Positions 12,297 to 31,769 of a DNA stretch of 64,000 nucleotides are shown here, piece by piece. The notes under the pieces are model-generated. The model did not search any database, had not been told where the DNA came from, and saw nothing but the letters and a program-made list of their open reading frames with translations. A program made the translations under genes and the position numbers. This DNA comes from Alkalispirochaeta sp. (lineage in GTDB: Bacteria; Spirochaetota; Spirochaetia; DSM-27196; Alkalispirochaetaceae): assembly GCA_965242725.1 (NCBI GenBank), contig CBDESZ010000022.1:32001-96000 (forward strand). Direction: 5' to 3'. The number at the start of each line of letters is the position of its first letter. Position 1 is the first letter of the stretch.

Positions 12297-14754
12297 CTAC
12301 CCCATCGTTGCGGTCCCGAATCACGTCACGGGGTTTGCTTCCGTTCTGGGGGCCTACGATTCCCATTCGTTCCATCTCTTCCACCATCCGGAGCGGCTCG
12401 ATTGTATCCGACCTTCAGCCGCCGCTGGAGGTAACTCGCCGACGCCTTCTGTGAGGACGTCACGACCTCAATTGCCTTTTCCATGAGCGGATCTTCCAGA
12501 ACGTCGGTATCCATGATGTCATCGTCGTCTTCGATGAAGATTTCGTCGTCTATGTAGTCAGGCTCTCCGTACTTCTTTACCTCCTCGACGACCCGTTCAA
12601 CTTCATCCTCCGAGAGAAAGGCCCCCTGAATGCGCACCGGAAAGGGATCGGCGGAGGAGGTAAAGAGCATGTCTCCCCGACCGAGAAGCTTTTTCCGCCC
12701 CGACCGTGTCGATGATGATCCGGGAATCCACCTTGCTGGCGACCATGAAGGCGATGCGGGAGGGGATATTCGCCTTAATGAGACCGGTAATGACGTCCGT
12801 CGACGGCCGCTGCGTGGCAAGGACGATGTGAATGCCGACGGCGCGGCTCATTGCGGCAAGACGGGCAACGGTGCTCTCCAGCTCCTTGCCGCTAGTGGCC
12901 ATGAGGGTCTGCAAACTCATCGATGATCACCACGATGTACGGAAGCGGTTCAGTGGCGAGATTCTTGCGTTTTATTTTGGCGTTGTACCCGGATATGTCC
13001 CGTGCTCCCAGGGAATCAAGGAGGCTGTAACGTCGTTCCATTTCATAAATCAGGTACTGCAGTGCCTGAAACGCCCCCGTTTGGGATCGGTGATGACCGG
13101 CGTGAGCAGGTGCGGTATGTCGTTGTAAAACTTCAGTTCCACGATCTTCGGATCGATGAGGATAAGCTTTACATCCGCAGGTCGTCGACGATAGAGAACT
13201 GAACAAATGATTGAGTTGACGCAGACCGATTTTCCGCTCCCCGTTGCACCCGCTATGAGGAGATGGGGGGTTCGCGTCAAATCGACGATCTGCGCCTCAC
13301 CGGCGATATCCTTCCCGAGGGCGATAGGGATACCGTGGTCGTCACCGAAGAATTCGTCGTCCCGGAGGAGCTCGCCGAAGGAGACGATGTTCCGCTCCTT
13401 GTTGGGGATCTCGATACCCACTGCATGTTTCCCCGGTATCGGTGCCACGATACGGACGCTCGAAGCCGCAAGTCTCAGGGCAATGTTGTCGGCGAGATTC
13501 GTTATTTTCGTGAGCTTCACCCCCGGCGCGGGGAGAATTTCAAACATGGTGATGACGGGACCCTTCCTGATACCCGTAACCTCCGCACGAATACCGAACT
13601 CCTCGAGGGTGACACGCAGCACTTCGCCCGCATCGCGCGTTCCGTCGTCAATTTCCCAATATCGACCGTCGGAGTATTGGTGCAGAATGGTGTCTATAGG
13701 CAGGGAGTAGGGGCGTCCGCCGCTCTTCGCGGGCTTTTTGTCGACGTTCCCGGCCAGTCCCGTTTCCCGACGCTCCGGTAACTCATCGTCTCCGTTCCAT
13801 TGGTCGAGCACGTCATCGTCGTCAAACTCCTCGTCGTCCCACTCGTCCTCTTCGTCATAGGCCGCATCGAGAATCTCCACATCGTCATCATCGGGGCCAT
13901 ACCGTCCGTCCACTTCGTCGTCGATGTCGGCGTCCACGTCGGCGGCGGGTCCGGATTTTCGGCCGAAAATGAGCGGAAGGGGCTCGTCGTCCAGCCCCTC
14001 TTCCATCTTTCGCCGGAGTGCGGAAAGGGTCCGGCCGATATCTCCGGCCGGTGTCTCTTCCCGGGGCGGGATGGTGCGGGCGACGTCATGTACGGCGTCC
14101 TCTTCGGTATATCCGTCGTCTTCCACGATGTAGGCGTATCGATCATCCCGTTCATCGTGGTCATCGAGCACCTCTTCTTCCTCTTCGAAGAGCTCCTCAA
14201 CTTCTTCCCTCCGCGCCTGTTCCGGTTCCGGGAGGGGCAGCACCTGGGATTCTTCGTCTGGAGTCTCCTCGTCATTGTCGTCGGCCTCCTGGTCCTCCTG
14301 GTCGGCAGCAAGATAGCGCCAGATCTGCATGAGTCCCACCGCCTCTATGGCGAGGACAAGGCTGAGCACGAGAATCGCACCCCGGGGCGTGAATGACTGA
14401 ACGACGAGTCGAAGGAAGGGGAGAAAGCGCTTCGCCGTCCGCCGTGAAGAGCTGCAGAATTGCGGCGATTGTCAATACGGGAACATGCACCAGATTGAGA
14501 AGGACGATCGTCGACCACGTTAGGGGTGCCTTCCGACCCGTTAACCCGGCGAGAATGAGAATGTACAGAGGAACCCACCACGCCGCCACATGTAATATGG
14601 TAAAGAGGAACCGCCCCGGTATCGCCACAATCCAGCCAAAAAAGGCGTTTGGATCGAGCATCGCGACGCCCAATGAAAGGACGACTGCAACGCCGGTTAT
14701 ACCGAGAATCGCGGCAATGATGACGTGTGCCGGATGTTTTGTACGCTGGACCAC
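12297..14754 (-). CDS. ftsK: DNA translocase FtsK/SpoIIIE (about 5 frameshifts)
   Basis: N-terminal TM segments and acidic linker; [36 protein letters not shown]; gamma domain [16 protein letters not shown]. Spread over ORFs 14272-14754, 13050-14369, 12892-13206, 12603-12920, 12326-12820 and 12178-12387. Confidence 0.92.
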
Positions 14755-18715: not shown

Positions 18716-18836
18716 GACGCGCTCCTACGATATTGACGCTATGGATTTATCCCCTCTTTGTCAACGCGACGGCGGCGGGAGCGGAACGTCATGGCCAGCG
18801 CATTAAATCAGAGGAGCCGGCGGCAGGTGCGGAACG

Positions 18837-18865
18837 TTGACACGCCACAACGGCCGACGGATAAT
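18837..18865 (+). promoter_or_regulatory. Sigma70-type promoter for a leaderless transcript
   Basis: TTGACA-17 nt-GATAAT, 6 nt before ATG 18872, no SD. Confidence 0.7.
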
Positions 18866-18871
18866 GGCGCA

Positions 18872-20228
18872 ATGCCGTTTCCCGTCATAATTGGCATCCT
18901 TATTCTGGTTATTTCTCTTTTGACTGCCGTCTACTGGTTCACACTGGGGAACAAAGATACTCCCAAGAAGAAAAAACAGAACGCTCCACAACGGCAGGAT
19001 CGTAACGCCGTATTGCGGGAGGCCAATCGTCAACTGGCGTCAAATCCCCGTGACCACCGGGCCCTCAACCAGATTGCGGACCTCTACTACGACGAACAGT
19101 CGTGGGAGAAGTCTATGAAAACCTACGGTATTCTCATGAATCTCGCCGCGTCAAATCAGGAGATCGACGAATGTCTGGTCACCACCCGCTACGGACTCTC
19201 GGCGCTCCAGCTCAACCAGTATGATGAGGCGTACAAGGCGCTCATGGTCGCCCGGACGATCAATGAAGAGCCCTTTGACATCAATTACAACCTGGGATAC
19301 CTGGAATATCGGCGGAAAAATTACGAACGGGCGGCACAACTCCTTCGCGCCGCCCTGGAAGCGCAGCCGGAACACGTTGCCGTACGACGGTACCTCGGGC
19401 GGACCATGTACAAGCTCCAGAAATTCAAGGACGCCCTCCGATATCTGCGGCAGGTCGTAGACCTCGCGCCGGAAGACAAGGAGTCTCTCTTTTTTTCTCG
19501 CCCAGAGTTACCATGAGCTGGGACAGAACGAGCAGGCCCTCATGATTTTCAGCCACCTCAGGCCCGACCCGACCATGGGACCCCACGCATCGTTGTTTGC
19601 GGGTATTATCCGCATGTCAAAACGGGAACTCGAAAAGGCGACGATGGATTTTGAACTCGGCCTGCGCCACGAAAAAGTGCGGGAAGATGTTGCCCTGGAG
19701 CTTCGCTACCGCCTGGCCGATGCCTACACGCGACAACAGGACATCGGAAAGGCGCTCCATCAGCTCGTTGAAATTCACCGGGTCAATCCGGGGTACAAGG
19801 ACGTAGCCGCCCAGATCGCCCGCAACAAGGAACTCCACAGCAATCGCCACCTGCAGATCTATCTCATCTCGCCAACCAGCGAATTTCTCTCTCTCTGCCG
19901 CAGGATGGTCATGACGTTCTACAATAACGCGAAAGTGAAGATCGTGGACGTGCAGATTCAACAAAATGAATACGCCGACATCCTGACGGAGGTCGAAACT
20001 GCACGATGGGAAGATGTGATTCTCTTTCGATTTATCCGCGGTACCGGCCAGGTGGGAGAACTGGTTGTTCGCGAACTTAACTCCCGGCTCAAAGAGACGA
20101 GGGCGGGACGCGGATTTTGCATCACCGCCGGTTCATATTCCGAGACGGCGACGCATTTTGTGGAGGCACGGCTGATAGACCTCCTGGACAAGGACAAACT
20201 CCTGGAAATATTCAACCGCCTCGACTGA
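18872..20228 (+). CDS. Membrane-anchored TPR protein with C-terminal Mrr-like restriction-endonuclease-fold domain (frameshift near 19495)
   Basis: N-terminal TM and multiple TPRs; C-terminal GELVVREL...RGFCITAGSYSETATHFVEARLIDLLD; T-run at the junction of the two ORFs. Confidence 0.7.
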
Positions 20229-22217: not shown

Positions 22218-22706
22218 TTACCAGTCAAGCTGTACAGTAAATCCGGCAAATACCTGGACGGGCTGACTGGAAAACTGCGGTTTGGGATAAAAATCGAAAC
22301 CGGGGGCAACTTCGACAAAAAACTCAAGGAAGTCGTCCAGGAGGAGAACGCTCAGCGCAAAGGGAACGCGGGCACCGCCGTCAAACTGGACATCTCCGTC
22401 GCCGTCGCGCCCCTCCGGATAGAGCTTGCCGTAAAGTCCGATACCGAAAGAGCCGTGGAGCACTTCCACCAACTGGCGATTGTCGATAAGGCGCAGATCG
22501 CCGGCGAGAAACACGTACTGCTTCCCCTCGGTCAGGTCGTATCCGATCTTCACATCCATCGGCGACGGCCGATATACGAGCACACCATTGGGCGTCCCCG
22601 CCGCCAGTCCGAGACGACCCGGCCTGTTGCCGACCTGTGCGAAAAGCGGCGTTGCAACGGCAACTGCCAACAATAGGGTGACCAATATGAACTGTCGTTT
22701 CATCAT
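22218..22706 (-). CDS. Small secreted outer-membrane beta-barrel-like protein (DUF3996-like)
   Basis: Signal peptide ending PLFA, alternating beta strands, LEFFVEVAPG, aromatic C-terminus; GGAGG RBS. Confidence 0.6.
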   Translation of the reverse strand: MMKRQFILVTLLLAVAVATPLFAQVGNRPGRLGLAAGTPNGVLVYRPSPMDVKIGYDLTEGKQYVFLAGDLRLIDNRQLVEVLHGSFGIGLYGKLYPEGRDGDGDVQFDGGARVPFALSVLLLDDFLEFFVEVAPGFDFYPKPQFSSQPVQVFAGFTVQLDW

Positions 22707-22775
22707 ATCCTCCGTGGCCAGTATACGATATTTCTTGTCCGCTGGCCCATTGCCTGATATAGTCATTTCTCAATT

Positions 22776-25700
22776 ATGGCCGAAAAACGTCAACACCCGC
22801 GTGTGGTGCATCGGGACGTGGTCAGGTTTGAGGGAAACGGTGCGACCATTGAGGGGTTGTCCGTTGATATCAGTCGGGCGGGGATTCAGGTTGAAGTCGC
22901 CGATCCCCATTCCCTGAACAGTGTTGAAACGATCCGGTTTTCACTTCCCAATACGAAGTCGGAACTGGAGCTCCCCGTACGTATTACCCGCCGGGAAAGC
23001 GCTGCGGACGGGAACGGTCAGCATAGACTCGGCTGTGAATTCCTCCGCAAATCAGATCAGCATATTCGTCTCATCGAAAACTACATCCGCGACACCGTCG
23101 CCCTTCCCGATCAGGATGGTCGCCAGATTCCCCGCATTACCACGTCGATTCCGGTGGAGTGGGATGACGGTCGCTCCCGGGGGACGATTGAAAACATCTC
23201 ACTCACGGGGGTGCGCATTTCCACGGAACGTGCCGTGGAGGTCCACAGGGATCTGCATCTCACATTCACACTGCCCGAACGAGGGGGTGCGACAAAGGCA
23301 TCGGCCCGCGTCGTCTATACCATACGGGAGGAATCGAGCCGGAACGTGCGGTTCGGCGCAACCTTTGTGGACCTTCCCCAGGTGCATCGTGCGCGCATCA
23401 ATAATTTCATTGAACAGACGACTGCGGTGACCTCACTCAAGTCGGTATGGGCGCGCCTCAACACCGACGGCGGGCGGGGATACACCCTGGAGGGGCATGA
23501 ACTCGCCGTCATCCTGCAGCGGGTGCCCGGGATCGTCTTCCATATCCTCATGGAGGGTGACCTCTCCATACATACGGCCACGGCGTCATATGACGGCGGG
23601 GAGCGGGAAATGCGGTTTACCCTGGTTCCCCAATCGGGTAGTTCCCCGTCCCAACCGGGGCAACGCCTCTTCGTCACCTTTACCGCCCTGGGGAGCAACT
23701 ACTATTTCGCCGCTCCCATAACCGGGATTTCCCGCCCCGACGCGACCGCCGCCGGCTCCGGGACCGTCGAAAATCGTGACGGAGTGTCGCAGGTCGTCAC
23801 CCGATGGCCGCAACACATCCATCGTTCCGACGACCGTGCCGATCACCGCTCGCCGGTGGAGAGCGACCAGCGGCTTTCGTTACGGCCCGAAGGAGGTATG
23901 GCACTTCTTGAGGGTCTCCTCATTGATGTGAGCCACGGGGGGTTTCTCTGCTCCCTGACCGTATCCGCCTCTGAAACGGGGCAGCTGCAGCCCGATACCG
24001 CGGTTGCAATTGAAACGGACGGCCCGGTGCCGCTCCAAAGCTACGGACGAATACGGCATCGGGAAATCAGGGACGACACCGGGGAAGGTGCCGATACCCG
24101 TGTGGTCTACGTCGGCGTGGAAACGGGGGTACGCCACGGTACCTTCGTACGTAGAGAGATATCCACCGATGAATGGGAACGACGCCTTGAACGATTAAGG
24201 AACGAGGACGACGGGGAAACGCCGGACGTTGAATCGCGCCACATTGAGACGCGGCGCATTTCCTATCGCAACAACGAAGGACACCGTATCGTCGCCCTCA
24301 TGAACCGCGTCGGAGACGACCGGTCGGGACGTCCGACGGTCGTCATCATTCCCCCCGCCTTCGGAAAGAAGAAGGAAAACCCGGCGCCGCTGGCGCTGAC
24401 CTTGTGTACAACCTTTCTCCGTGCAGGTGCGCCGCTCGTCGTTATTCGGTACGACGGTATCAACCGTCCCGGTGAGAGCCACAACGAAGGGGGTGGAGCA
24501 CTGCGGGGATACGAGATGATCCACTACCGGCCGACCCAGGGAGTACGGGACATATCGACTACGCTGGATTTCGTATACGGCAACGGCGAGTTTATTCCAC
24601 AACGGGTCATTCTCATCACCAGCAGTATGTCCTCGGTGGACGCACGAAAACTCCTCGTCCGGGAAGGTCGCGTAGACGGCTGGATCAGCCTCATGGGAGT
24701 CCCCGCCGGCAGAACCACCATGATGAACGTCCTCGCCGGAACGGACATCATTGCAAATTACCGCCTCAGCGTCCCCAACGGGGTACGGGGCATGCTGGGT
24801 CACCTGGTCGACATGGATGTGGTTGCCCGGGATCTCGTGGAGGAGCATTACGCCTTCGTTGCCGATGCGCGTCACGATATGGCTCTCATTGACATTCCCG
24901 TCACGTGGATCGTCGGCCGGCATGACCACTGGGTGGACAGGGAAGAAGTTGAAGACATCATGTCCGTCGAAGCCGGCGCCCCCCGGGAGGTGGTCCACAT
25001 ACCCACCGGCCACAACCTCAGAAACAGTGACGACGCAGCCGAGGCATTCCGCATCATCGCCCAGTACTGCGCCGATGCGGCGGGGCTGTCGGTGGAAGCG
25101 GCGGCACCTCCCCGGGAGGCGGTCCTCCAGACACTTTCCCGGGAACGTGAGGGACTCTACAAACCGATTGACACCGACACCGTCACCGCCTACTGGCACT
25201 CCTACCTTCTCGGCGGCGACGGAACGAGTGAAGGCTACGATTTCTACCGGAATCTGGCGGAGTTCCGCGAGTTCATCGCTCAGGAAGCGGAGATGCTGGA
25301 CCCGCAACCTGGTGATCACATTGCGGATATGGGGTGTGGAACGGGTATTCTCACAGAGGCCCTCCTGCGCAGGCTCGTCGACGACGGGCCACGTAACGAT
25401 GACAGACCTCCCTCCGGAATCGTCGCGGTGGATATCATTCCGGACGCCCTCGTCCGGGCGGAGAAGAAATGCCGGCTCATCCTCGGAGAAAACGCACCGG
25501 CGCCTGACATATCACTTGAATTCCGGACGGCAAATCTCGAGCCGGACCGATATGCCCCGGTGCGGGACTTTGTATTGAACCGACAGTTGTCGCCGGCCTT
25601 TCTCAGGGGCCGCATCGAGGGGCTGTACGACAGCGTGGTGGATCTCTGGGACAGGGAAGACTCTGCGGGCGACATTCTCCGCGGAGACGATATCGCCCTG

Positions 25701-26270
25701 CCCGACGATTTTCCCCGTGCCGATGAGGCACGGGAGTTCCGCACCGCCGCCCGCGTTGCCACAGGCCACATGGACGCAGCGGACGCATGCTATTCGATTT
25801 TCTCCTTCGGAGACGCGCCGCGGCAGAGGGCACAACGAGAGGAGCCGCGACGGTACGACCGTCTCGCGGCGAGCCTCTTCATTTCCTATATTCTGAACCC
25901 CGATTACCTCCTCTGGGAGTTTCATCGCATGCTGCGCCCGGGCGGGGTGATCCTCGTCTCTTCCATGCGTCCCGACAGCGACGTTTCAAAGATCTTTACC
26001 ACCTACATTGAAGAGGTGGACTCGGGACGGGCCGATGCGACGCACCGCGGAGCGGCCGACGCGATGCTCAATGAGGCGGCGGCACTCTTTGAACTGGAAG
26101 AGGAGGGCCATTTCCGCTTTTACACCGCCGAAGAATTGTCGGCCATGTTGATCGCCGCCGGTTTCACGGATGTCCGGGTGCGACCTTCCCTTGGAACGCC
26201 CCCGCAGGCGTACATCGCGACGGGTATCGCCGTCGAAAATCCCCCCGAGCCATGGAGGAACTATGCATGA
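22776..26270 (+). CDS. Multidomain protein: 3 PilZ domains + LuxD-like alpha/beta-hydrolase (acyl-ACP thioesterase/transferase) + class I SAM methyltransferase
   Basis: RQHPR/DISRAG, RQIPR/NISLTG, RADHR/DVSHGG; RYDGINRPGES, ITSSMS, HDHWV, GHNL; ADMGCGTG and RMLRPGG. Confidence 0.8.
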   Translation: MAEKRQHPRVVHRDVVRFEGNGATIEGLSVDISRAGIQVEVADPHSLNSVETIRFSLPNTKSELELPVRITRRESAADGNGQHRLGCEFLRKSDQHIRLIENYIRDTVALPDQDGRQIPRITTSIPVEWDDGRSRGTIENISLTGVRISTERAVEVHRDLHLTFTLPERGGATKASARVVYTIREESSRNVRFGATFVDLPQVHRARINNFIEQTTAVTSLKSVWARLNTDGGRGYTLEGHELAVILQRVPGIVFHILMEGDLSIHTATASYDGGEREMRFTLVPQSGSSPSQPGQRLFVTFTALGSNYYFAAPITGISRPDATAAGSGTVENRDGVSQVVTRWPQHIHRSDDRADHRSPVESDQRLSLRPEGGMALLEGLLIDVSHGGFLCSLTVSASETGQLQPDTAVAIETDGPVPLQSYGRIRHREIRDDTGEGADTRVVYVGVETGVRHGTFVRREISTDEWERRLERLRNEDDGETPDVESRHIETRRISYRNNEGHRIVALMNRVGDDRSGRPTVVIIPPAFGKKKENPAPLALTLCTTFLRAGAPLVVIRYDGINRPGESHNEGGGALRGYEMIHYRPTQGVRDISTTLDFVYGNGEFIPQRVILITSSMSSVDARKLLVREGRVDGWISLMGVPAGRTTMMNVLAGTDIIANYRLSVPNGVRGMLGHLVDMDVVARDLVEEHYAFVADARHDMALIDIPVTWIVGRHDHWVDREEVEDIMSVEAGAPREVVHIPTGHNLRNSDDAAEAFRIIAQYCADAAGLSVEAAAPPREAVLQTLSREREGLYKPIDTDTVTAYWHSYLLGGDGTSEGYDFYRNLAEFREFIAQEAEMLDPQPGDHIADMGCGTGILTEALLRRLVDDGPRNDDRPPSGIVAVDIIPDALVRAEKKCRLILGENAPAPDISLEFRTANLEPDRYAPVRDFVLNRQLSPAFLRGRIEGLYDSVVDLWDREDSAGDILRGDDIALPDDFPRADEAREFRTAARVATGHMDAADACYSIFSFGDAPRQRAQREEPRRYDRLAASLFISYILNPDYLLWEFHRMLRPGGVILVSSMRPDSDVSKIFTTYIEEVDSGRADATHRGAADAMLNEAAALFELEEEGHFRFYTAEELSAMLIAAGFTDVRVRPSLGTPPQAYIATGIAVENPPEPWRNYA

Positions 26271-27690
26271 CCTCATAGCGACGATAGACGGTGCGCTTGC
26301 GACGTGGGGGCCTCACCCCGTCCTCATTGAAGTCGACGGGAACGGGACCATCACTCCGATCCCCTCATCGGAGCTCCTCCGACGGATCGACGGGGCGGAA
26401 CACTCCCTCCGGCGGTTCGGAGTTCAACGGTACGACGTGGTCGCCCTCTTTCTGGAGAATTCAGCGGATTACATCGCCGTCCTCATCGCCCTGTGGCGGC
26501 TGGGAGCGATACCGGTCTTTGCGAAACTGGAGTACCGCCGCAATGAACTGACCACCATTTTTCGCGACATCGATCCCGACGGGATAATCACGGAAGAGCA
26601 CTATCTGCCCCACCTGAAACAGTTCTATCCCGGACGGGGAATCATCGTTCGCAGACCCGACGGACTCGCTGCGGCGCAGCCCGTTACCCGGCACCACGTT
26701 TCGGAGGAGACGGTATCGGGAATAGCATCGATCAACTGCACCTATCGCGGCTGCGGCGAACTCCTGGGAAGCATGGCGACGGAGCGGCAGTATCTCCACG
26801 GGGCGAAGGTCCTGCAGGACGGTCTGCAGGGGAACGCCGGTGAATCGATGCTCTACCCCCTTCCACTGAGCCACATTTTCACCTTGATCGGCTGCCTTCT
26901 GGTACCCCTCATGTACGGAATGACAGGTGTAATCACCCGAACCGTCCATCCCAGAGTTCTCTTTGACACGATACATAAACTGGAGATCCGCCATATGACG
27001 GCGGTACCGGAGATCTATCGTCTCCTTGCACGCTCCTTTCGGTCGAAGCGGCCGCCGGAATCGCTGAAGACATTTGTTTCCGGCGGAAGCACCCTGGAAG
27101 CGGGAGAGTGCCGCAATTTCAACGATATCTTTGAGGTCGAAGTCCTCCACGGTTTCGGCCTGACCGAATTTACGCCGGTGAGCCGCAATGTACGGAATGA
27201 GAGCCGGTGCGGGACGGTAGGCCCTGTCTGCGACGGCGTGGAGGTATCCATCGCCAATCCCGACGACGAGGGGAAAGGGGAAATACTCGTCAAAAGCGAC
27301 GCGCTGGGATTGGGGTACTACAATCGCCCTCAGGCGACACGACAAGCCTTCCGGGACGGCTGGTTTCACACCGGTGACCGGGGATTTTTTGACGGGGACC
27401 ACCTCGTGTTCGATCGGGAGATAAAGGCGACAGGTAAAATCAACGGCGTCATGGTGGACCGGGAAGAGATCCGTCGGACGATCCTTGCGGCGACGCCCGC
27501 GCTCGACGCGGAGGTCCGACTGCAGGGAAATTCCATTTTGGCACTTCTGGAATTACCGGAAGACGCCGATATTGAGGGGGAACAAAAAAGACTTCATAAA
27601 GTGTTACCCCACCAGCTGGCGGCGTACAAGATTCCCCGTCGTCTGGAGCAGCGGGTCAGACCGGCCGTGGGCGAAAGAGAGGAACCGTGA
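26263..27690 (+). CDS. AMP-binding (acyl-CoA/acyl-ACP ligase-like) enzyme with divergent P-loop
   Basis: LPLSHIF, FVSGG, HGFGLTE, GEILVKS, GWFHTGDRG, LAAYKIPR; GGAGG RBS; overlaps the upstream stop. Confidence 0.85.
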   Translation: MHDLIATIDGALATWGPHPVLIEVDGNGTITPIPSSELLRRIDGAEHSLRRFGVQRYDVVALFLENSADYIAVLIALWRLGAIPVFAKLEYRRNELTTIFRDIDPDGIITEEHYLPHLKQFYPGRGIIVRRPDGLAAAQPVTRHHVSEETVSGIASINCTYRGCGELLGSMATERQYLHGAKVLQDGLQGNAGESMLYPLPLSHIFTLIGCLLVPLMYGMTGVITRTVHPRVLFDTIHKLEIRHMTAVPEIYRLLARSFRSKRPPESLKTFVSGGSTLEAGECRNFNDIFEVEVLHGFGLTEFTPVSRNVRNESRCGTVGPVCDGVEVSIANPDDEGKGEILVKSDALGLGYYNRPQATRQAFRDGWFHTGDRGFFDGDHLVFDREIKATGKINGVMVDREEIRRTILAATPALDAEVRLQGNSILALLELPEDADIEGEQKRLHKVLPHQLAAYKIPRRLEQRVRPAVGEREEP

Positions 27691-27971
27691 GCGACAGAGA
27701 ACAACCGACGGAGCTGATGAATTCTGCGGCTCTCCGGGACCGACTGGAAATGATCGTTTCCCGCATATCGAGAATCCCCCGGGAAGAGTTTGAAGATGAG
27801 GTGCTCATCCGGGAGGAACTGGGCATCGACAGCCTCATGGCAATGGAAATCACCGCCGCGGTGGAGCGGGAGTTCAGCGTTGAGATCAATGAGGCGGAAA
27901 TGTTTTCAATCCAGGCGGTAGGCGAGTTTGCGCGGTTTGTAGAAGAGCGGTACCGGGAGACCCATGGATAA
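27687..27971 (+). CDS. Acyl carrier protein
   Basis: Acidic 94-aa protein with ELGIDSLMAMEI phosphopantetheine site; GTGA overlap with the upstream gene. Confidence 0.9.
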   Translation: MSDREQPTELMNSAALRDRLEMIVSRISRIPREEFEDEVLIREELGIDSLMAMEITAAVEREFSVEINEAEMFSIQAVGEFARFVEERYRETHG

Positions 27972-29274
27972 GGGACGAATACTGCTCATTTCACCGGGTG
28001 GCGCGTTTCTGAGCCGGAACGAGGAATTTCGGACCTATGTTGAGACGTCCCGGGAGATGAAAACGATCCTTCACTACTGGAACGGTCTGGGTGCGGCTCT
28101 GCCGACGGTGGCGGCCCTCACACCCGAAAACTATTCGGTCACCATTTGCGACGAAAATTACAGCGACATCGACTTTGACTCGCCCGTCGAAATCGTCGGA
28201 CTGACGGGAATGACCCAGCAGGCTTCCCGGGCGTATGAGATCGCCGACGAATTTCGCAGGCGGGGCGTTTATGTAACGATGGGCGGAATGCACGCCACCG
28301 TCCTCCCCGAGGAGGCGCTTGAACACGTCGATTCCGTCTTTGTCGGGGAGGCGGAAAACACATGGCCCCGGTTTCTGTCCGACTACGACAGGGGAGAGCC
28401 TCGCCGTATATATGACCAGAACGATTATCCCGACGTCGACATGACGACGATTCCGCTGCCCCGGTACGACCTGGTAGCCCACAATGACTACCCCGTGGTG
28501 TGGGTTCAGGCGACACGGGGGTGCCCCCTTGACTGCGAGTTCTGTGCGGCCACACGGGTCTATGGTCGACGTTACCGCCACAAGGAGGTTTCCCAGGTCG
28601 CAACCGAGGTGCGTACGGTGCGATCGCTCTGGAAACACGCCCAGGTCGGATTTGCCGACGACAACATGTTCGTCAATCGACCGTGGGTACGAAAGCTTCT
28701 TGACGAATTTGAGACGATTCCGTTCACCTGGTACGCCCAGAGCGATATTTCAATTTCGGAGCATCCCGACCTCCTGCAACGGCTGCATGAAACGGGTCTG
28801 CGCATTCTCTTTGTCGGTTTTGAGAGCGTAAACCACGACAATCTCAAGGGGATAAACCGCAATGAGTGGAAAGCGCGCCGGCTGGAGCGATATCCTGACG
28901 CGATCGCGGCGATTCAGGGAGCGGGTATCGGCGTCTACGGCTCCTTCATCGTCGGAATGGAATCGGATGACCACGATGTGTTTTCCCAGATTGCGGACTT
29001 CGCAAACACCAATAATCTGATGGGTACGCAGATAACGATCCTCACGCCCTTTCCCGGCAGCCTCCTGCGAACCCGCATGGAGCGGGAGGGACGGATTGCG
29101 TCCAGCGACTGGAGTCTGTATACCGCGTGGAACAGCGTCATACACCATCCCCGCCTATCCGCAGACGAGCTCGAGTCGGGTCTGTTGAAAATCTATCGGT
29201 CGGTCTATGCGGAAGAACAACTACGCGCTCGAGCGGCGCATTTCAAGACCATTTTCCGGAAACTCGCGGGGTAA
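27964..29274 (+). CDS. B12-binding-domain radical SAM enzyme
   Basis: N-terminal cobalamin-binding-like region (GGMHAT, VGEAE); RGCPLDCEFC, FADDN, VGFES, TPFPGS. Confidence 0.9.
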   Translation: MDKGRILLISPGGAFLSRNEEFRTYVETSREMKTILHYWNGLGAALPTVAALTPENYSVTICDENYSDIDFDSPVEIVGLTGMTQQASRAYEIADEFRRRGVYVTMGGMHATVLPEEALEHVDSVFVGEAENTWPRFLSDYDRGEPRRIYDQNDYPDVDMTTIPLPRYDLVAHNDYPVVWVQATRGCPLDCEFCAATRVYGRRYRHKEVSQVATEVRTVRSLWKHAQVGFADDNMFVNRPWVRKLLDEFETIPFTWYAQSDISISEHPDLLQRLHETGLRILFVGFESVNHDNLKGINRNEWKARRLERYPDAIAAIQGAGIGVYGSFIVGMESDDHDVFSQIADFANTNNLMGTQITILTPFPGSLLRTRMEREGRIASSDWSLYTAWNSVIHHPRLSADELESGLLKIYRSVYAEEQLRARAAHFKTIFRKLAG

Positions 29275-29284
29275 CAACGACGAG

Positions 29285-31769
29285 ATGCAGCCGGGATACA
29301 TAGAGGAACAAAAAGAACGGGCCCTTCGGAACAGCCGTATCGCGGCCGTCTTTGCCGCGGTTGCAATTATGGTGTTCGCCCTTCTCGACATGGTGGTCTA
29401 TCCAGACTTTATGTACCGCTTTCTTATTCTCCGCATTTCAGTCGTCGGCGTCAGCGCGATCCTCTACGCCATTACCTATATTCCCCGTGCCGCCGATTTC
29501 GGACGGGAGATCGGTATGGTTCAGTACGTCATTACGGCTCTTTCAGTTGTCGTGATGATACATATGGCGGACGGGTACCTGAGTACCTATTACGCGGGGT
29601 TGAACATCATTTTCATCGTTTTTCTCGCCATTCTTCCCCTGGACCACATCAGGACAACCGTCATTTGCTCGGTCATCTACGCGGCGTATCTCATTCCCAT
29701 CCTCCTGCACGGCCAAATCGACGATTGGGCGATTTTTGTCAACAACAACGCCTTCCTCCTGGGAACAATCCTGCTCGCCGTCGTAAGCTCCTATTTTTCA
29801 AATCGCCTGCGCCGGAAGGAGTATATCGCCCGATACAACCTCGCCCGGGCAAATGACGAGCTGAAACAGATGGACCTGCTGAAATCCCAGTTTTTCGCCA
29901 ATATCAGCCATGAGGTGCGGACGCCGCTCACGTCGATCATCGGCCCCGTTCAAAGTCTCTACCAGGGGGAGGCCGGGGAGGTAAACGATATACAGCGGCA
30001 GCTCCTTTCCCAGGTCTATCGGAACGGCGTCAGACTCCTCGACATGATCAATCAAATGCTCGATTTTGCCCGGTTTGATGCAAATAAGATGCAGGTGCGT
30101 CTGTCCGAGGTCGATCTGGATACGGTCATTCAGGACATCATCTCCGTCTTTCTTGAAGTCGCTGCACGAAAATCACTGACGATCACCTATGAACTGGAGA
30201 CGGATATTTTTCCGGTCTATCTGGACAAGGAAAAAGCGGACCGGATTATCACCAATCTGCTGAGAAACGCCATAAAATTCACCGACCGCGGCGGAATCAC
30301 CATACGTGCGGGCAGCAACGGCGATACCGTCTATATCGAAATAGAAGACACGGGAATCGGCATACCGGGAGATCAGGTTTCGACGATTTTTGAACGGTTT
30401 CAGCAGGTCGACAGCTCGAGCACGCGAAGGTACGAAGGAACGGGCCTCGGATTGACGATCGTCAAGGAAGCGGTGGAGATCCAGAGGGGCTCGGTGGACG
30501 TCCGGAGCGTATACGGGGAAGGAACGACCTTTACCGTAACCTTCCCCTGCGATCTCCATGAACAGATGCCAAACGCCGTCGGTGCACCTGTTGCCAAGGA
30601 ACGGCGACGGGGGGACCGCCGAAAAGGAAACGGCGCCTATACCGGACCGGAACGGCGACGCGGACCGCGGCGACAGCTGGACTTTGCACGTGTGGACATC
30701 GCCGATATGGTCATGATCGATTCGGGGCTCTACGGGTTCGATGAAGAGGATGAGGAGTCGATCGCCGACCGGGACGATGACCGGGAGCGGACAATCGTTC
30801 TCTACGTCGAGGATAACGTCGACCTTCGCAGGTACGTGTATACAATGCTCTCCCGATCGGGGTATCGCGTCGTTACCGCCGCGGACGGCAGAGACGGGTG
30901 GGACAAATTGCAGGACCTCCACCCGGATGTCGTCGTTTCCGACGTCATGATGCCCCGCCTGGACGGCTACGACCTCATGAAACGGATGAGAAGCAGCGAC
31001 GAGCTGTGCACCATTCCGATCATCCTCACCACGGCCAAGTCGGAAACAGAGGAACGGATCAAGGGTCTGGAACACGGTGCGGATGATTACCTTGCCAAAC
31101 CGATAAACATCAGGGAACTTGACGCCCGTATTCGCAATCTCATAACCCGCAGGCTCTTTCAGGAAGCGGTGGCAAAAGCGGAAATGCTGGAACGGCGAAT
31201 GCAGGACATCACCCTGGGATTCTCCCGTTCCCTGGATCTGCGGGATCCCTACACGGCAAATCACTCAAAGGATGTCCTCTTTTTTGGTACGATTATCGCC
31301 GATGAACTGGGATATACCGTAGACGAGACGTTCCGTGACGCGCTGCTCCTTCACGATATCGGGAAAATCGGAATCCCCGACCGTATCCTTCTCAAGGAAG
31401 GGCCTCTCAATGATGACGAGTGGACGTTAATGAAACGACACGCCGAGTTCGGTGCCCAATTGCTGGCGGAAATTTGAATCATTCAGGGATGTCAGTGAAA
31501 TCGTCCTCGCCCATCAGGAACGGTTCGACGGGAGCGGATATCCCCGGGGCCTGAAAAACGGGGATATCCCCTTTATTGCCCGCATTATCGCCGTTGCCGA
31601 CGCATGGCACGCGATGACTGAAGATCGTCCCTACCGCAGGGCGCTGGATGTCTCCGAAGCCATTTGTGAATTGACCCGTGGCAGGGGCAGCCATTTTGAC
31701 CCTGCGGTGGTTGATGCATTTATTGCGGCTCTCTGCCGTCACCAATTGATCGATCTATCAATGTGCTGA
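29285..31769 (+). CDS. Membrane hybrid sensor kinase: TM bundle + HisKA + HATPase + REC + HD-GYP (frameshift near 31470)
   Basis: About 6 TM helices; ANISHEVRTPLT, NAIKFT, DTGIG, GTGLGL; VEDN, SDVMMP, DDYLAKP; LHDIGKIG, then HQERFDGSGYPRGL in ORF 31452-31769. Confidence 0.88.

Follow-up and report, generated by a model that had tools for sequence, protein, structure and literature searches.

The gene at positions 22776-26270 of a 64,000-nucleotide stretch of Alkalispirochaeta sp. DNA (hereafter the window; GenBank assembly GCA_965242725.1, contig CBDESZ010000022.1) encodes a protein in which three PilZ domains are followed by a LuxD-like hydrolase and a class I S-adenosylmethionine (SAM) methyltransferase. 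To judge from its sequence and from those of its partners, the protein is a real, conserved, and uncharacterised enzyme, a predicted effector of cyclic diguanosine monophosphate (c-di-GMP) and probably a new quorum-signal synthase. We favour, with moderate confidence, the function of an undescribed autoinducer synthase that replaces the methyltransferase PhcB. The enzyme would release and methylate an acyl chain, and would receive c-di-GMP feedback through the HD-GYP domain of a PhcS-like receptor encoded in the same operon.

Domain organization of the putative synthase

The domains of the synthase are arranged in the order PilZ-PilZ-YcgR_N-PilZ, LuxD-like hydrolase, and class I SAM methyltransferase (Table 1). 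The original prediction described, at these coordinates, three PilZ domains with complete ligand-binding motifs that precede two catalytic domains, and this description holds throughout. The open reading frame (ORF) lies on the forward strand and has 1164 residues. The motif pairs are RQHPR (residues 5-9) and DISRAG (31-36) in PilZ1, RQIPR (116-120) and NISLTG (140-145) in PilZ2, and RADHR (354-358) and DVSHGG (384-389) in PilZ3. Both catalytic domains are recognised by Pfam, and the AlphaFold model (pLDDT 87.6, pTM 0.85) is rich in beta strands. A contig of a public sequencing run, which may be the source of this DNA itself, covers the ORF with zero base differences.

Pfam alone recognises two PilZ stretches in the synthase, and the assignment of PilZ3 needs other support. 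Positions 247-431 of the family profile match PP4397 (2gjg, E 8e-5; also 3kyf) and, weakly, YcgR-type chains of K. pneumoniae (5ejl and 5ked, E 0.02-0.03). HHalign gives 95.6% for PilZ1 against PilZ3 over 48 columns and 2.1% for PilZ2 against PilZ3. The profile matches to PP4397 and the YcgR-type chains, together with the beta-rich model, also support the YcgR-like N-domain that had been suggested in front of PilZ3. Among 20,000 shuffles of residues 1-460, three correctly spaced motif pairs occurred in none, two in 10, and one in 635.

The search for homologues found 124 proteins, 120 of which were listed; 107 were aligned after the exclusion of 13 partial sequences. The motifs of PilZ1 are intact in all 93 homologues that cover them, those of PilZ2 in 105 of 106, and those of PilZ3 in 100 of 107; in the other seven, D is replaced by E or S by G/A. 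Of the 93 homologues that could be aligned in full, 86 retain the three pairs. Conservation in each PilZ domain is highest at the ligand-binding residues, with near-invariant motif residues against a mean column conservation of about 0.5 across the domains. By the definition of canonical PilZ receptors in the available text of 10.1101/814665, all three domains carry the motifs of c-di-GMP receptors and are predicted to bind the ligand. The host genome contains 24 GGDEF matches, in addition to eight Pfam PilZ, two ketosynthase, and three matches similar to acyl carrier proteins (ACPs). The near-invariant motif residues within variable domains and the abundance of GGDEF domains are consistent with the earlier proposal of a biosynthetic enzyme under c-di-GMP control, which thus stands at the level of sequence.

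Catalytic domains

The hydrolase domain belongs to the LuxD family of Pfam (PF02273, Acyl_transf_2; residues 520-731, E 3.8e-6). Its closest structural relative is the myristoyl-ACP thioesterase LuxD of Vibrio harveyi (1tht), which is the best Foldseek match and ranks first among 48,161 chains compared using VIA-align, with a Z score of 28.6, a root-mean-square deviation of 3.0, and 278 of 293 residues aligned (runner-up Z 26.0). Esterases rank close behind, and the profile match to LuxD has an E value of 6.5e-5. As in LuxD, the fold is combined with a Ser-Asp-His triad and a nucleophile elbow that departs from GxSxG. The nucleophile S617 is conserved in 106 of 107 homologues, and the acid D717 and H746 in all 107; the serine and aspartate are in register with the ASLS and DDWV stretches of LuxD, and H746 was assigned as the triad histidine from its invariance and position. 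In contrast to LuxD, with which it shares 20% identity, the domain is fused to PilZ and methyltransferase domains, and Pfam and family-library scans identified no luxC or luxE types among the other genes of the operon. An orthologue of LuxD (NF052253) was ruled out, with a score of 20.9 bits against a curated cut-off of 420.

The methyltransferase domain contains a motif I in which D851, C854, G855, T856, and G857 are invariant among the aligned homologues. The matches of a whole-protein fold search were filled by the hydrolase domain, which leaves the methyltransferase without a fold-level assignment. Membership of the PhcB family was ruled out: the methyltransferase profile gives 9.2, 6.9, and 3.1 bits on three PhcB-like proteins, which score 83-116 bits among themselves.

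Receptor of the operon and its sensor

The synthase opens an operon of five overlapping or near-abutting genes, which continues with an AMP-binding ligase, an ACP, a B12-binding radical SAM enzyme, and a membrane receptor. The pairing of the synthase with this receptor, the main feature of the locus, falls beyond the coordinates of the original prediction. The sensor of the receptor comprises its first ~185 residues, which form six helices. HHalign aligns it with the N-terminus of PhcS at 99.6% (E 6e-25, 181 columns), and the best match of a PhcS profile in the whole genome is the operon receptor. In the reverse direction, all 120 of the 120 listed PhcS-like N-termini match the sensor profile, with a median of 69 bits and with 89-96 bits for Ralstonia pseudosolanacearum; shuffled and reversed controls reach at most 10.5 and 0.6 bits, respectively. 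The Pfam family MASE8, which Ralstonia PhcS carries, scores 14.9 bits on the sensor, below the gathering cut-off of 26.2, and 26 of 49 members match it at E<=0.1; Atlas features give a strong MASE8 match. The receptor stands next to a methyltransferase gene, as PhcS does. According to the available text of PMC11960443, PMC6989110, PMC7154725, and PMC9102662, PhcS senses methyl 3-hydroxymyristate (3-OH MAME), which is produced by the methyltransferase PhcB.

A search of 72,556 plasmids using the sensor returned two matches, one of which is a kinase encoded directly after a methyltransferase in Paraburkholderia graminis; the catalytic half of the synthase had no match in the plasmid search. Relatives of this kinase bear the name PhcS, among them the R. 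pseudosolanacearum protein (50-53% identity), and MASE8 is present in each of the 120 listed. The cluster of the P. graminis methyltransferase is annotated as a biosynthesis protein of methyl 3-hydroxypalmitate (3-OH PAME). The plasmid locus (L076:4572-8947) has a complete phcB-phcS-regulator-regulator-like operon.

An HD-GYP domain is fused to the receptor in 16 of 18 scanned cases. Two Desulfotignum loci (L036:16854-20092 and L066:3701-7476) have a split resembling RpfC/RpfG, with a kinase of the order histidine kinase (HK)-REC-HK followed by a separate REC-HD-GYP gene. The motif of HD-GYP domains is HD together with HHExh[D/N]GxGYP, as given in section 5 of 10.1101/2021.11.05.467447. The HD is present in 45 of 45 receptors, which were chosen for having GYP, and HHE is found in nine of them and HQE in 36, including the window receptor.

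Distribution of the triple-PilZ lineage

A genome scan returned 148 relatives of the synthase; the 80 retained fall into 73 loci, essentially all of which derive from metagenome bins. By record title, 61 loci belong to Spirochaetota, six are of Desulfobacterota type, one is from Aminicenantes, two are from Eubacteriales, and three are unassigned. BLAST searches with the window proteins show the same gene order throughout. The 50 loci with at least 4.2 kb of downstream sequence were scored using profiles built from these same loci, and BLAST provides an independent view. All 50 contain the ligase, the ACP, and the sensor, and 41 of them also contain the radical SAM gene.

Among 401 Spirochaetota genomes, the full synthase is encoded in eight, with weak matches in two more. 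All eight full synthases have the sensor within 6 kb, and the eight genomes are also those with the top-scoring receptor; seven of the eight belong to one genus, so that these counts overstate independence and lend the pairing less support than their number suggests. The occurrence is patchy: within its own genus, the synthase is found in four of 16 other genomes, and it is present in 15 of 41 relatives, including the genome of the window itself. Shorter forms gave 37 matches, mostly on short contigs, among which there was no clear stand-alone hydrolase-methyltransferase.

Wider family and the single-PilZ lineage

A profile of the hydrolase domain collected 625 representatives, 271 of them at E<=1e-30, and the domain forms were determined from the best 150 of the 625. 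The YcgR_N-PilZ-LuxD-methyltransferase form of ~830 residues, forms with two or three PilZ domains, and REC-PilZ forms are common, and the YcgR_N-PilZ unit occurs in all members examined that have a complete N-terminus. Record titles place family members in Spirochaetota and Desulfobacterota, protein names add Acidobacteriota and a Nannocystis bin, and look-alikes in Myxococcota and Nitrospirota are found in the Atlas. There the short form is found mainly in Myxococcota, with the look-alikes in Nitrospirota, a lead drawn from the few members with assigned taxa. Among 38 proteins of this form, the RxxxR arginines, the motif glycine, and the catalytic triad are invariant in all 38. In P0290, P0294, and P0383, one of which is named as from Acidobacteriota, a REC domain takes the place of PilZ1, and phosphorylation can apparently substitute as the input in such members.

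The lineage with a single PilZ domain was represented by 125 metagenome relatives and 80 kept loci, 29 of which have at least 3.2 kb of downstream sequence. Scored with a sensor profile built from the triple-PilZ lineage alone, 28 of these 29 loci contain the same sensor type, and 20 encode an MMPL exporter. The operon ligase, ACP, and radical SAM gene were detected in 0 of 29 at the thresholds used; six loci have generic ligases on the opposite strand. The kinases are of the HK-REC-HK type together with REC-GAF-HK. The conserved core of the family is the synthase with a PhcS-type sensor, because the sensor is the partner common to both of these distant lineages. Since relatives with one PilZ domain exist beside the same partner sensor, three PilZ sites are not required, and the cooperativity that the original prediction attached to them is possible but not needed.

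Two further features of the single-PilZ loci were observed. In 23 of 59 loci (for example L081, L088, L124, L129, and L132), the synthase is immediately preceded by a gene that joins an AAA nucleotide-kinase-like domain to a dCMP/cytidine deaminase, and in L081 and L132 this gene comes after a winged-helix AAA regulator. A conserved protein of ~230 residues, which is not PilZ-like, follows the kinases.

PhcB-like genes beside the same sensor type

The sensor type occurs in 62 of the 401 Spirochaetota genomes (121 matches), and PhcB-like matches in 53. The PhcB-like query is homologous (116 bits) to the Paraburkholderia protein whose protein cluster has the 3-OH PAME annotation. Of the PhcB-like genes scoring at least 130 bits, 43 of 43 have a sensor within 3 kb, and of the weaker matches one of 21; the cut-off was set after a score gap had been seen and the genomes are related, so that this is a pattern rather than a statistic and counts for less in favour of a signalling role. 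One receptor family is thus paired with two unrelated methyltransferases, one of which is of a known methyl-ester synthase family, as far as homology assigns them. Three of the eight synthase genomes in this sample also contain a PhcB-like gene of at least 130 bits.

PhcB-like genes adjoin a MASE8-type sensor in 38 of the 401 genomes, some of which have clusters of several sensors, and Phc-like signalling looks common in Spirochaetota. A literature search found no paper on this subject. The genome of the window itself contains a second Phc-like module (L074:4296-8013; G000:C32:28295-32015), which is flanked by GGDEF genes and consists of an slr1658-superfamily gene, a PhcB-like methyltransferase of 480 residues, and a MASE8-type sensor fused to a PP2C phosphatase.

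Proposed function and alternatives

In the proposed mechanism, the LuxD-like domain would free an acyl chain from its acyl carrier, and the SAM domain would methylate the chain, presumably at the carboxyl oxygen, to give a diffusible signal similar to a fatty-acid methyl ester. After export, the signal would act between cells and be sensed by the PhcS-type receptor of the same operon, which may set the activity of its HD-GYP domain by His-to-Asp phosphotransfer and so change the level of c-di-GMP. Binding of c-di-GMP to the PilZ domains would gate the synthase. If c-di-GMP inhibits catalysis and the signal lowers c-di-GMP, as the diffusible signal factor (DSF) does via RpfC/RpfG, the loop would be one of positive autoinduction; otherwise it would be negative. 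The spirochaete ligase, ACP, and radical SAM enzyme would serve to provide and modify a special acyl chain; the single-PilZ loci are without these three genes and frequently encode the MMPL lipid exporter in their place. The position of LuxD as the top fold match, with a conserved triad, argues for an acyl-releasing synthase, as do the acyl-chain partners of one lineage and the exporter of the other. The homology of the sensor to PhcS, the conserved pairing, the HD-GYP output, and the patchy occurrence point to signalling.

Several observations weigh against this function. The methyltransferase profile finds generic class I relatives alone, and its scores of 3-9 bits on PhcB-like proteins fall below those of ordinary methyltransferases of the same genome; since the domain is not PhcB-like, the formation of a methyl ester rests on analogy with the receptor. 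The fold of the sensor is widespread, resembling Pseudomonas aeruginosa ImcA and membrane adenylyl cyclases with Z scores of 14.5-15.7. In a quick, unfinished tree of sensors, PhcS forms a clade on a long separate branch, with the group closest to it undecided, and therefore the ligand class rather than the ligand identity transfers to the sensor of the window. Of the 121 sensors, 47 have no synthase of either type nearby, and at the thresholds applied both types are missing from 19 of the 62 genomes with a sensor. The HQE in place of HHE makes the phosphodiesterase activity of the receptor HD-GYP domain uncertain, and no HD-GYP output was seen in the annotated single-PilZ loci. The P-loop of the ligase (26734-26772, residues 158-170) is replaced in 53 of 53 aligned homologues, with the consensus NYTYRGYGYPLGA and, in the window, NCTYRGCGELLGS. 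The canonical P-loop of ANL enzymes, (T/S)(S/G)G(T/S)(T/S)GxPKG, occurs in none of the 53 operon ligases compared with six of the seven other ligases of the genome; the GLTE and GD motifs and the C-terminal lysine are invariant despite this alteration. Finally, nine of the 50 long operons lack the radical SAM gene and still keep the ligase and ACP. Without a tailoring enzyme, loading a chain and then hydrolysing it would achieve nothing unless elongation or transfer of the chain took place, and these nine operons speak for one of these two steps rather than for mere loading and release.

Such a transfer is at the centre of the alternative that survives best, which we consider unlikely: the LuxD-like domain would be an acyltransferase that moves the chain from ACP to an acceptor, and the product, an acyl ester or amide methylated on carbon or nitrogen, would be a secondary metabolite or membrane lipid sensed in the same cell rather than a signal of population density. 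The nine operons agree with this, as do the naming of the LuxD family in Pfam as an acyl transferase, the dissimilarity of the methyltransferase to PhcB, and other kinds of hydrolase-methyltransferase fusions in the Atlas; the MMPL exporter of the single-PilZ lineage suits any lipid product. However, what the two lineages share as a partner is the PhcS-type sensor alone and not a biosynthetic gene, there is no conserved gene to supply the acceptor, and the patchiness within the genus is unlike that of a housekeeping lipid gene.

The close ranking of esterases behind LuxD would also allow a methylesterase, and with it a bidirectional editor whose methyltransferase makes and whose hydrolase destroys a methyl-ester signal, perhaps one made by PhcB-type enzymes of the same cell or its neighbours, with c-di-GMP selecting the direction. 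The separate PhcB-like gene with its own sensor-PP2C protein in the same genome would fit this scheme. We regard it as improbable, given that LuxD ranks above the esterases with a nearly complete match, that the dedicated ACP is conserved in all 50 long operons, and that just three of the eight synthase genomes contain a strong PhcB-like gene.

It is very improbable that the synthase methylates and demethylates the adjacent receptor in an adaptation switch similar to that of CheR/CheB. The tight linkage of synthase and receptor and the binding of MapZ to the methyltransferase CheR1 at raised c-di-GMP, described in the available text of 10.1101/2020.02.11.943704, would accord with such PilZ-controlled methylation, but the methyltransferase domain has no CheR match and is closest to small-molecule types, and the LuxD fold, ACP, ligase, and MMPL exporter indicate lipid chemistry. 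A structural or protein-docking role of the PilZ domains, in an enzyme that c-di-GMP does not regulate, is scarcely plausible: PilZ-less LuxD-methyltransferase look-alike clusters of ~560 residues appear in the Atlas, and c-di-GMP binding by PixB of Myxococcus xanthus is dispensable for one of its functions (available text of PMC8316039), but the ligand-binding residues are the most conserved ones in all three domains and are also kept in the distant single-PilZ lineage.

Beyond the autoinducer synthase of the window, we entertain a bolder generalisation, to which we give rather less than even chances. An undescribed family of quorum-sensing synthases across phyla, taking the place of PhcB opposite PhcS-type receptors, would make new methylated fatty-acid signals tailored by radical SAM enzymes and be gated directly by c-di-GMP. 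With the HD-GYP receptor, it would form a transcription-free loop, the steepness of which would be tuned by one, two, or three PilZ domains.

Comparison with known systems

The operon is similar to the Phc system of Ralstonia (PhcB and PhcS; 3-OH PAME or 3-OH MAME) in that the gene of a membrane kinase, whose MASE8-type sensor is homologous, follows that of a SAM methyltransferase. In contrast to Phc, the synthase shows no homology to PhcB beyond the class I fold and adds LuxD-like and PilZ domains, the operon has further genes for the ligase, ACP, and radical SAM enzyme, and the output is REC-HD-GYP instead of PhcR/PhcQ/PhcA. The operon, which ends in the fused REC-HD-GYP receptor, contains neither PhcR/PhcQ regulators nor PhcA, the search for PhcA having covered the operon and not the rest of the genome.

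The likeness to the Rpf/DSF system of Xanthomonas, as presented in the available text of PMC13220807, is one of logic, namely a synthase of acyl thioesterase type, an acyl ligase, a membrane kinase, and an HD-GYP domain acting on c-di-GMP. However, RpfF is of the enoyl-CoA hydratase type, a domain that Pfam and family-library scans did not find among the five genes of the operon, and the acid DSF is not methylated. RpfF is kept in check through its binding to the REC domain of RpfC or to RpfR, whereas the synthase would be gated by PilZ domains of its own.

PixB of M. xanthus (PilZ-PilZ-GNAT) likewise combines more than one PilZ domain with an enzyme that handles acyl groups, and its two PilZ domains contribute unequally (available text of PMC8316039). 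PixB differs in its catalytic domain and in its PilZ domains, which lack the serine of motif 2, compared with three complete motif pairs here, and the synthase is linked to a dedicated receptor. The YcgR_N-PilZ unit relates the synthase to receptors of the YcgR/PP4397 type, from which it differs in its catalytic domains, and PilZ-PilZ tandems that retain their motifs have been described (10.1101/814665, available text).

A literature search found no description of the present protein, although survey supplements or subscription journals could hold one; it returned nothing that joins LuxD with PilZ, nothing for "three PilZ domains", and nothing on quorum sensing in Spirochaeta via a fatty acid methyl ester. 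The main texts of two PilZ surveys (10.1101/814665 and 10.1101/2020.02.11.943704) do not contain "acyl" or "hydrolase" in the parts available, and their supplements might list the architecture. The available part of a Leptospira c-di-GMP survey does not mention MASE or Phc, and MASE8 was found as a single mention in the available text of one relevant paper.

Genomic context of the operon

Table 1. Coordinates of the synthase, its domains, and the other operon genes in the window
Feature	Position	Strand	Details
Triple-PilZ/LuxD-like hydrolase/SAM methyltransferase fusion, putative signal synthase	22776..26270	+	1164 aa; ATG 22776, stop 26270
PilZ1 (aa 3-108)	22782..23099	+	Pfam PF07238; RxxxR 22788-22802, DxSxxG 22866-22883
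PilZ2 (aa 114-213)	23115..23414	+	Pfam; RxxxR 23121-23135, NxSxxG 23193-23210
YcgR_N-like motif-less beta-barrel (aa ~236-348)	23481..23819	+	Profile matches to PP4397 and YcgR-type chains; strands in the model
PilZ3 (aa 350-452)	23823..24131	+	RxxxR 23835-23849, DxSxxG 23925-23942; PP4397/YcgR profile matches, HHalign to PilZ1
LuxD-like alpha/beta hydrolase (aa 489-796)	24240..25163	+	Predicted triad S617 (24624-26), D717 (24924-26), H746 (25011-13)
Class I SAM methyltransferase with ~100-aa helical insert (aa ~800-1152)	25173..26231	+	Motif I DMGCGTG 25326-25346; Pfam PF13489, E 1.3e-9
AMP-binding (acyl-CoA/acyl-ACP ligase-like) enzyme	26263..27690	+	PF00501; overlaps synthase stop; non-canonical P-loop
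Dedicated acyl carrier protein, GIDSL motif	27687..27971	+	PF00550
B12-binding radical SAM enzyme, accessory tailoring	27964..29274	+	CxxxCxxC invariant; Pfam
Receptor: six-transmembrane PhcS/MASE8-type sensor (29285-~29835), HisKA, HATPase, REC, HD-GYP	29285..31769	+	

The receptor gene has an apparent frameshift, with a change of frame at 31470/71. A truly broken receptor was rejected: contigs of two runs from the same sample (X1 and X4) are without one base at 31470, which identifies an assembly error. An FtsK-like gene (12326-14369, in three frames) and a TPR-like gene (18758-20228, in two pieces) also look frameshifted in the list of ORFs and, given the one-base error in the receptor, their breaks are probably assembly errors as well.

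Upstream of the synthase, a divergent gene on the reverse strand (22218-22766, likely ATG at 22706) encodes a protein with a start resembling a signal peptide and no Pfam match; it is conserved beside the synthase in locus L001 only. A promoter scan gave results at chance level, with 4 found against 4.8 expected.

Biological implications

If the proposed function is correct, it would give free-living spirochaetes and other mostly uncultured bacteria of sediment and soil a chemistry of cell-to-cell signalling. It would also be a case of an autoinducer synthase under the direct control of a second messenger, with the loop closed at the level of proteins. The link of the MASE8 domain to PhcS, and the common PhcB/PhcS-like pairs in Spirochaetota, give many orphan sensors a testable class of ligand. 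The natural series of enzymes with one, two, and three PilZ domains offers a clean test of whether additional sites sharpen the allosteric response.

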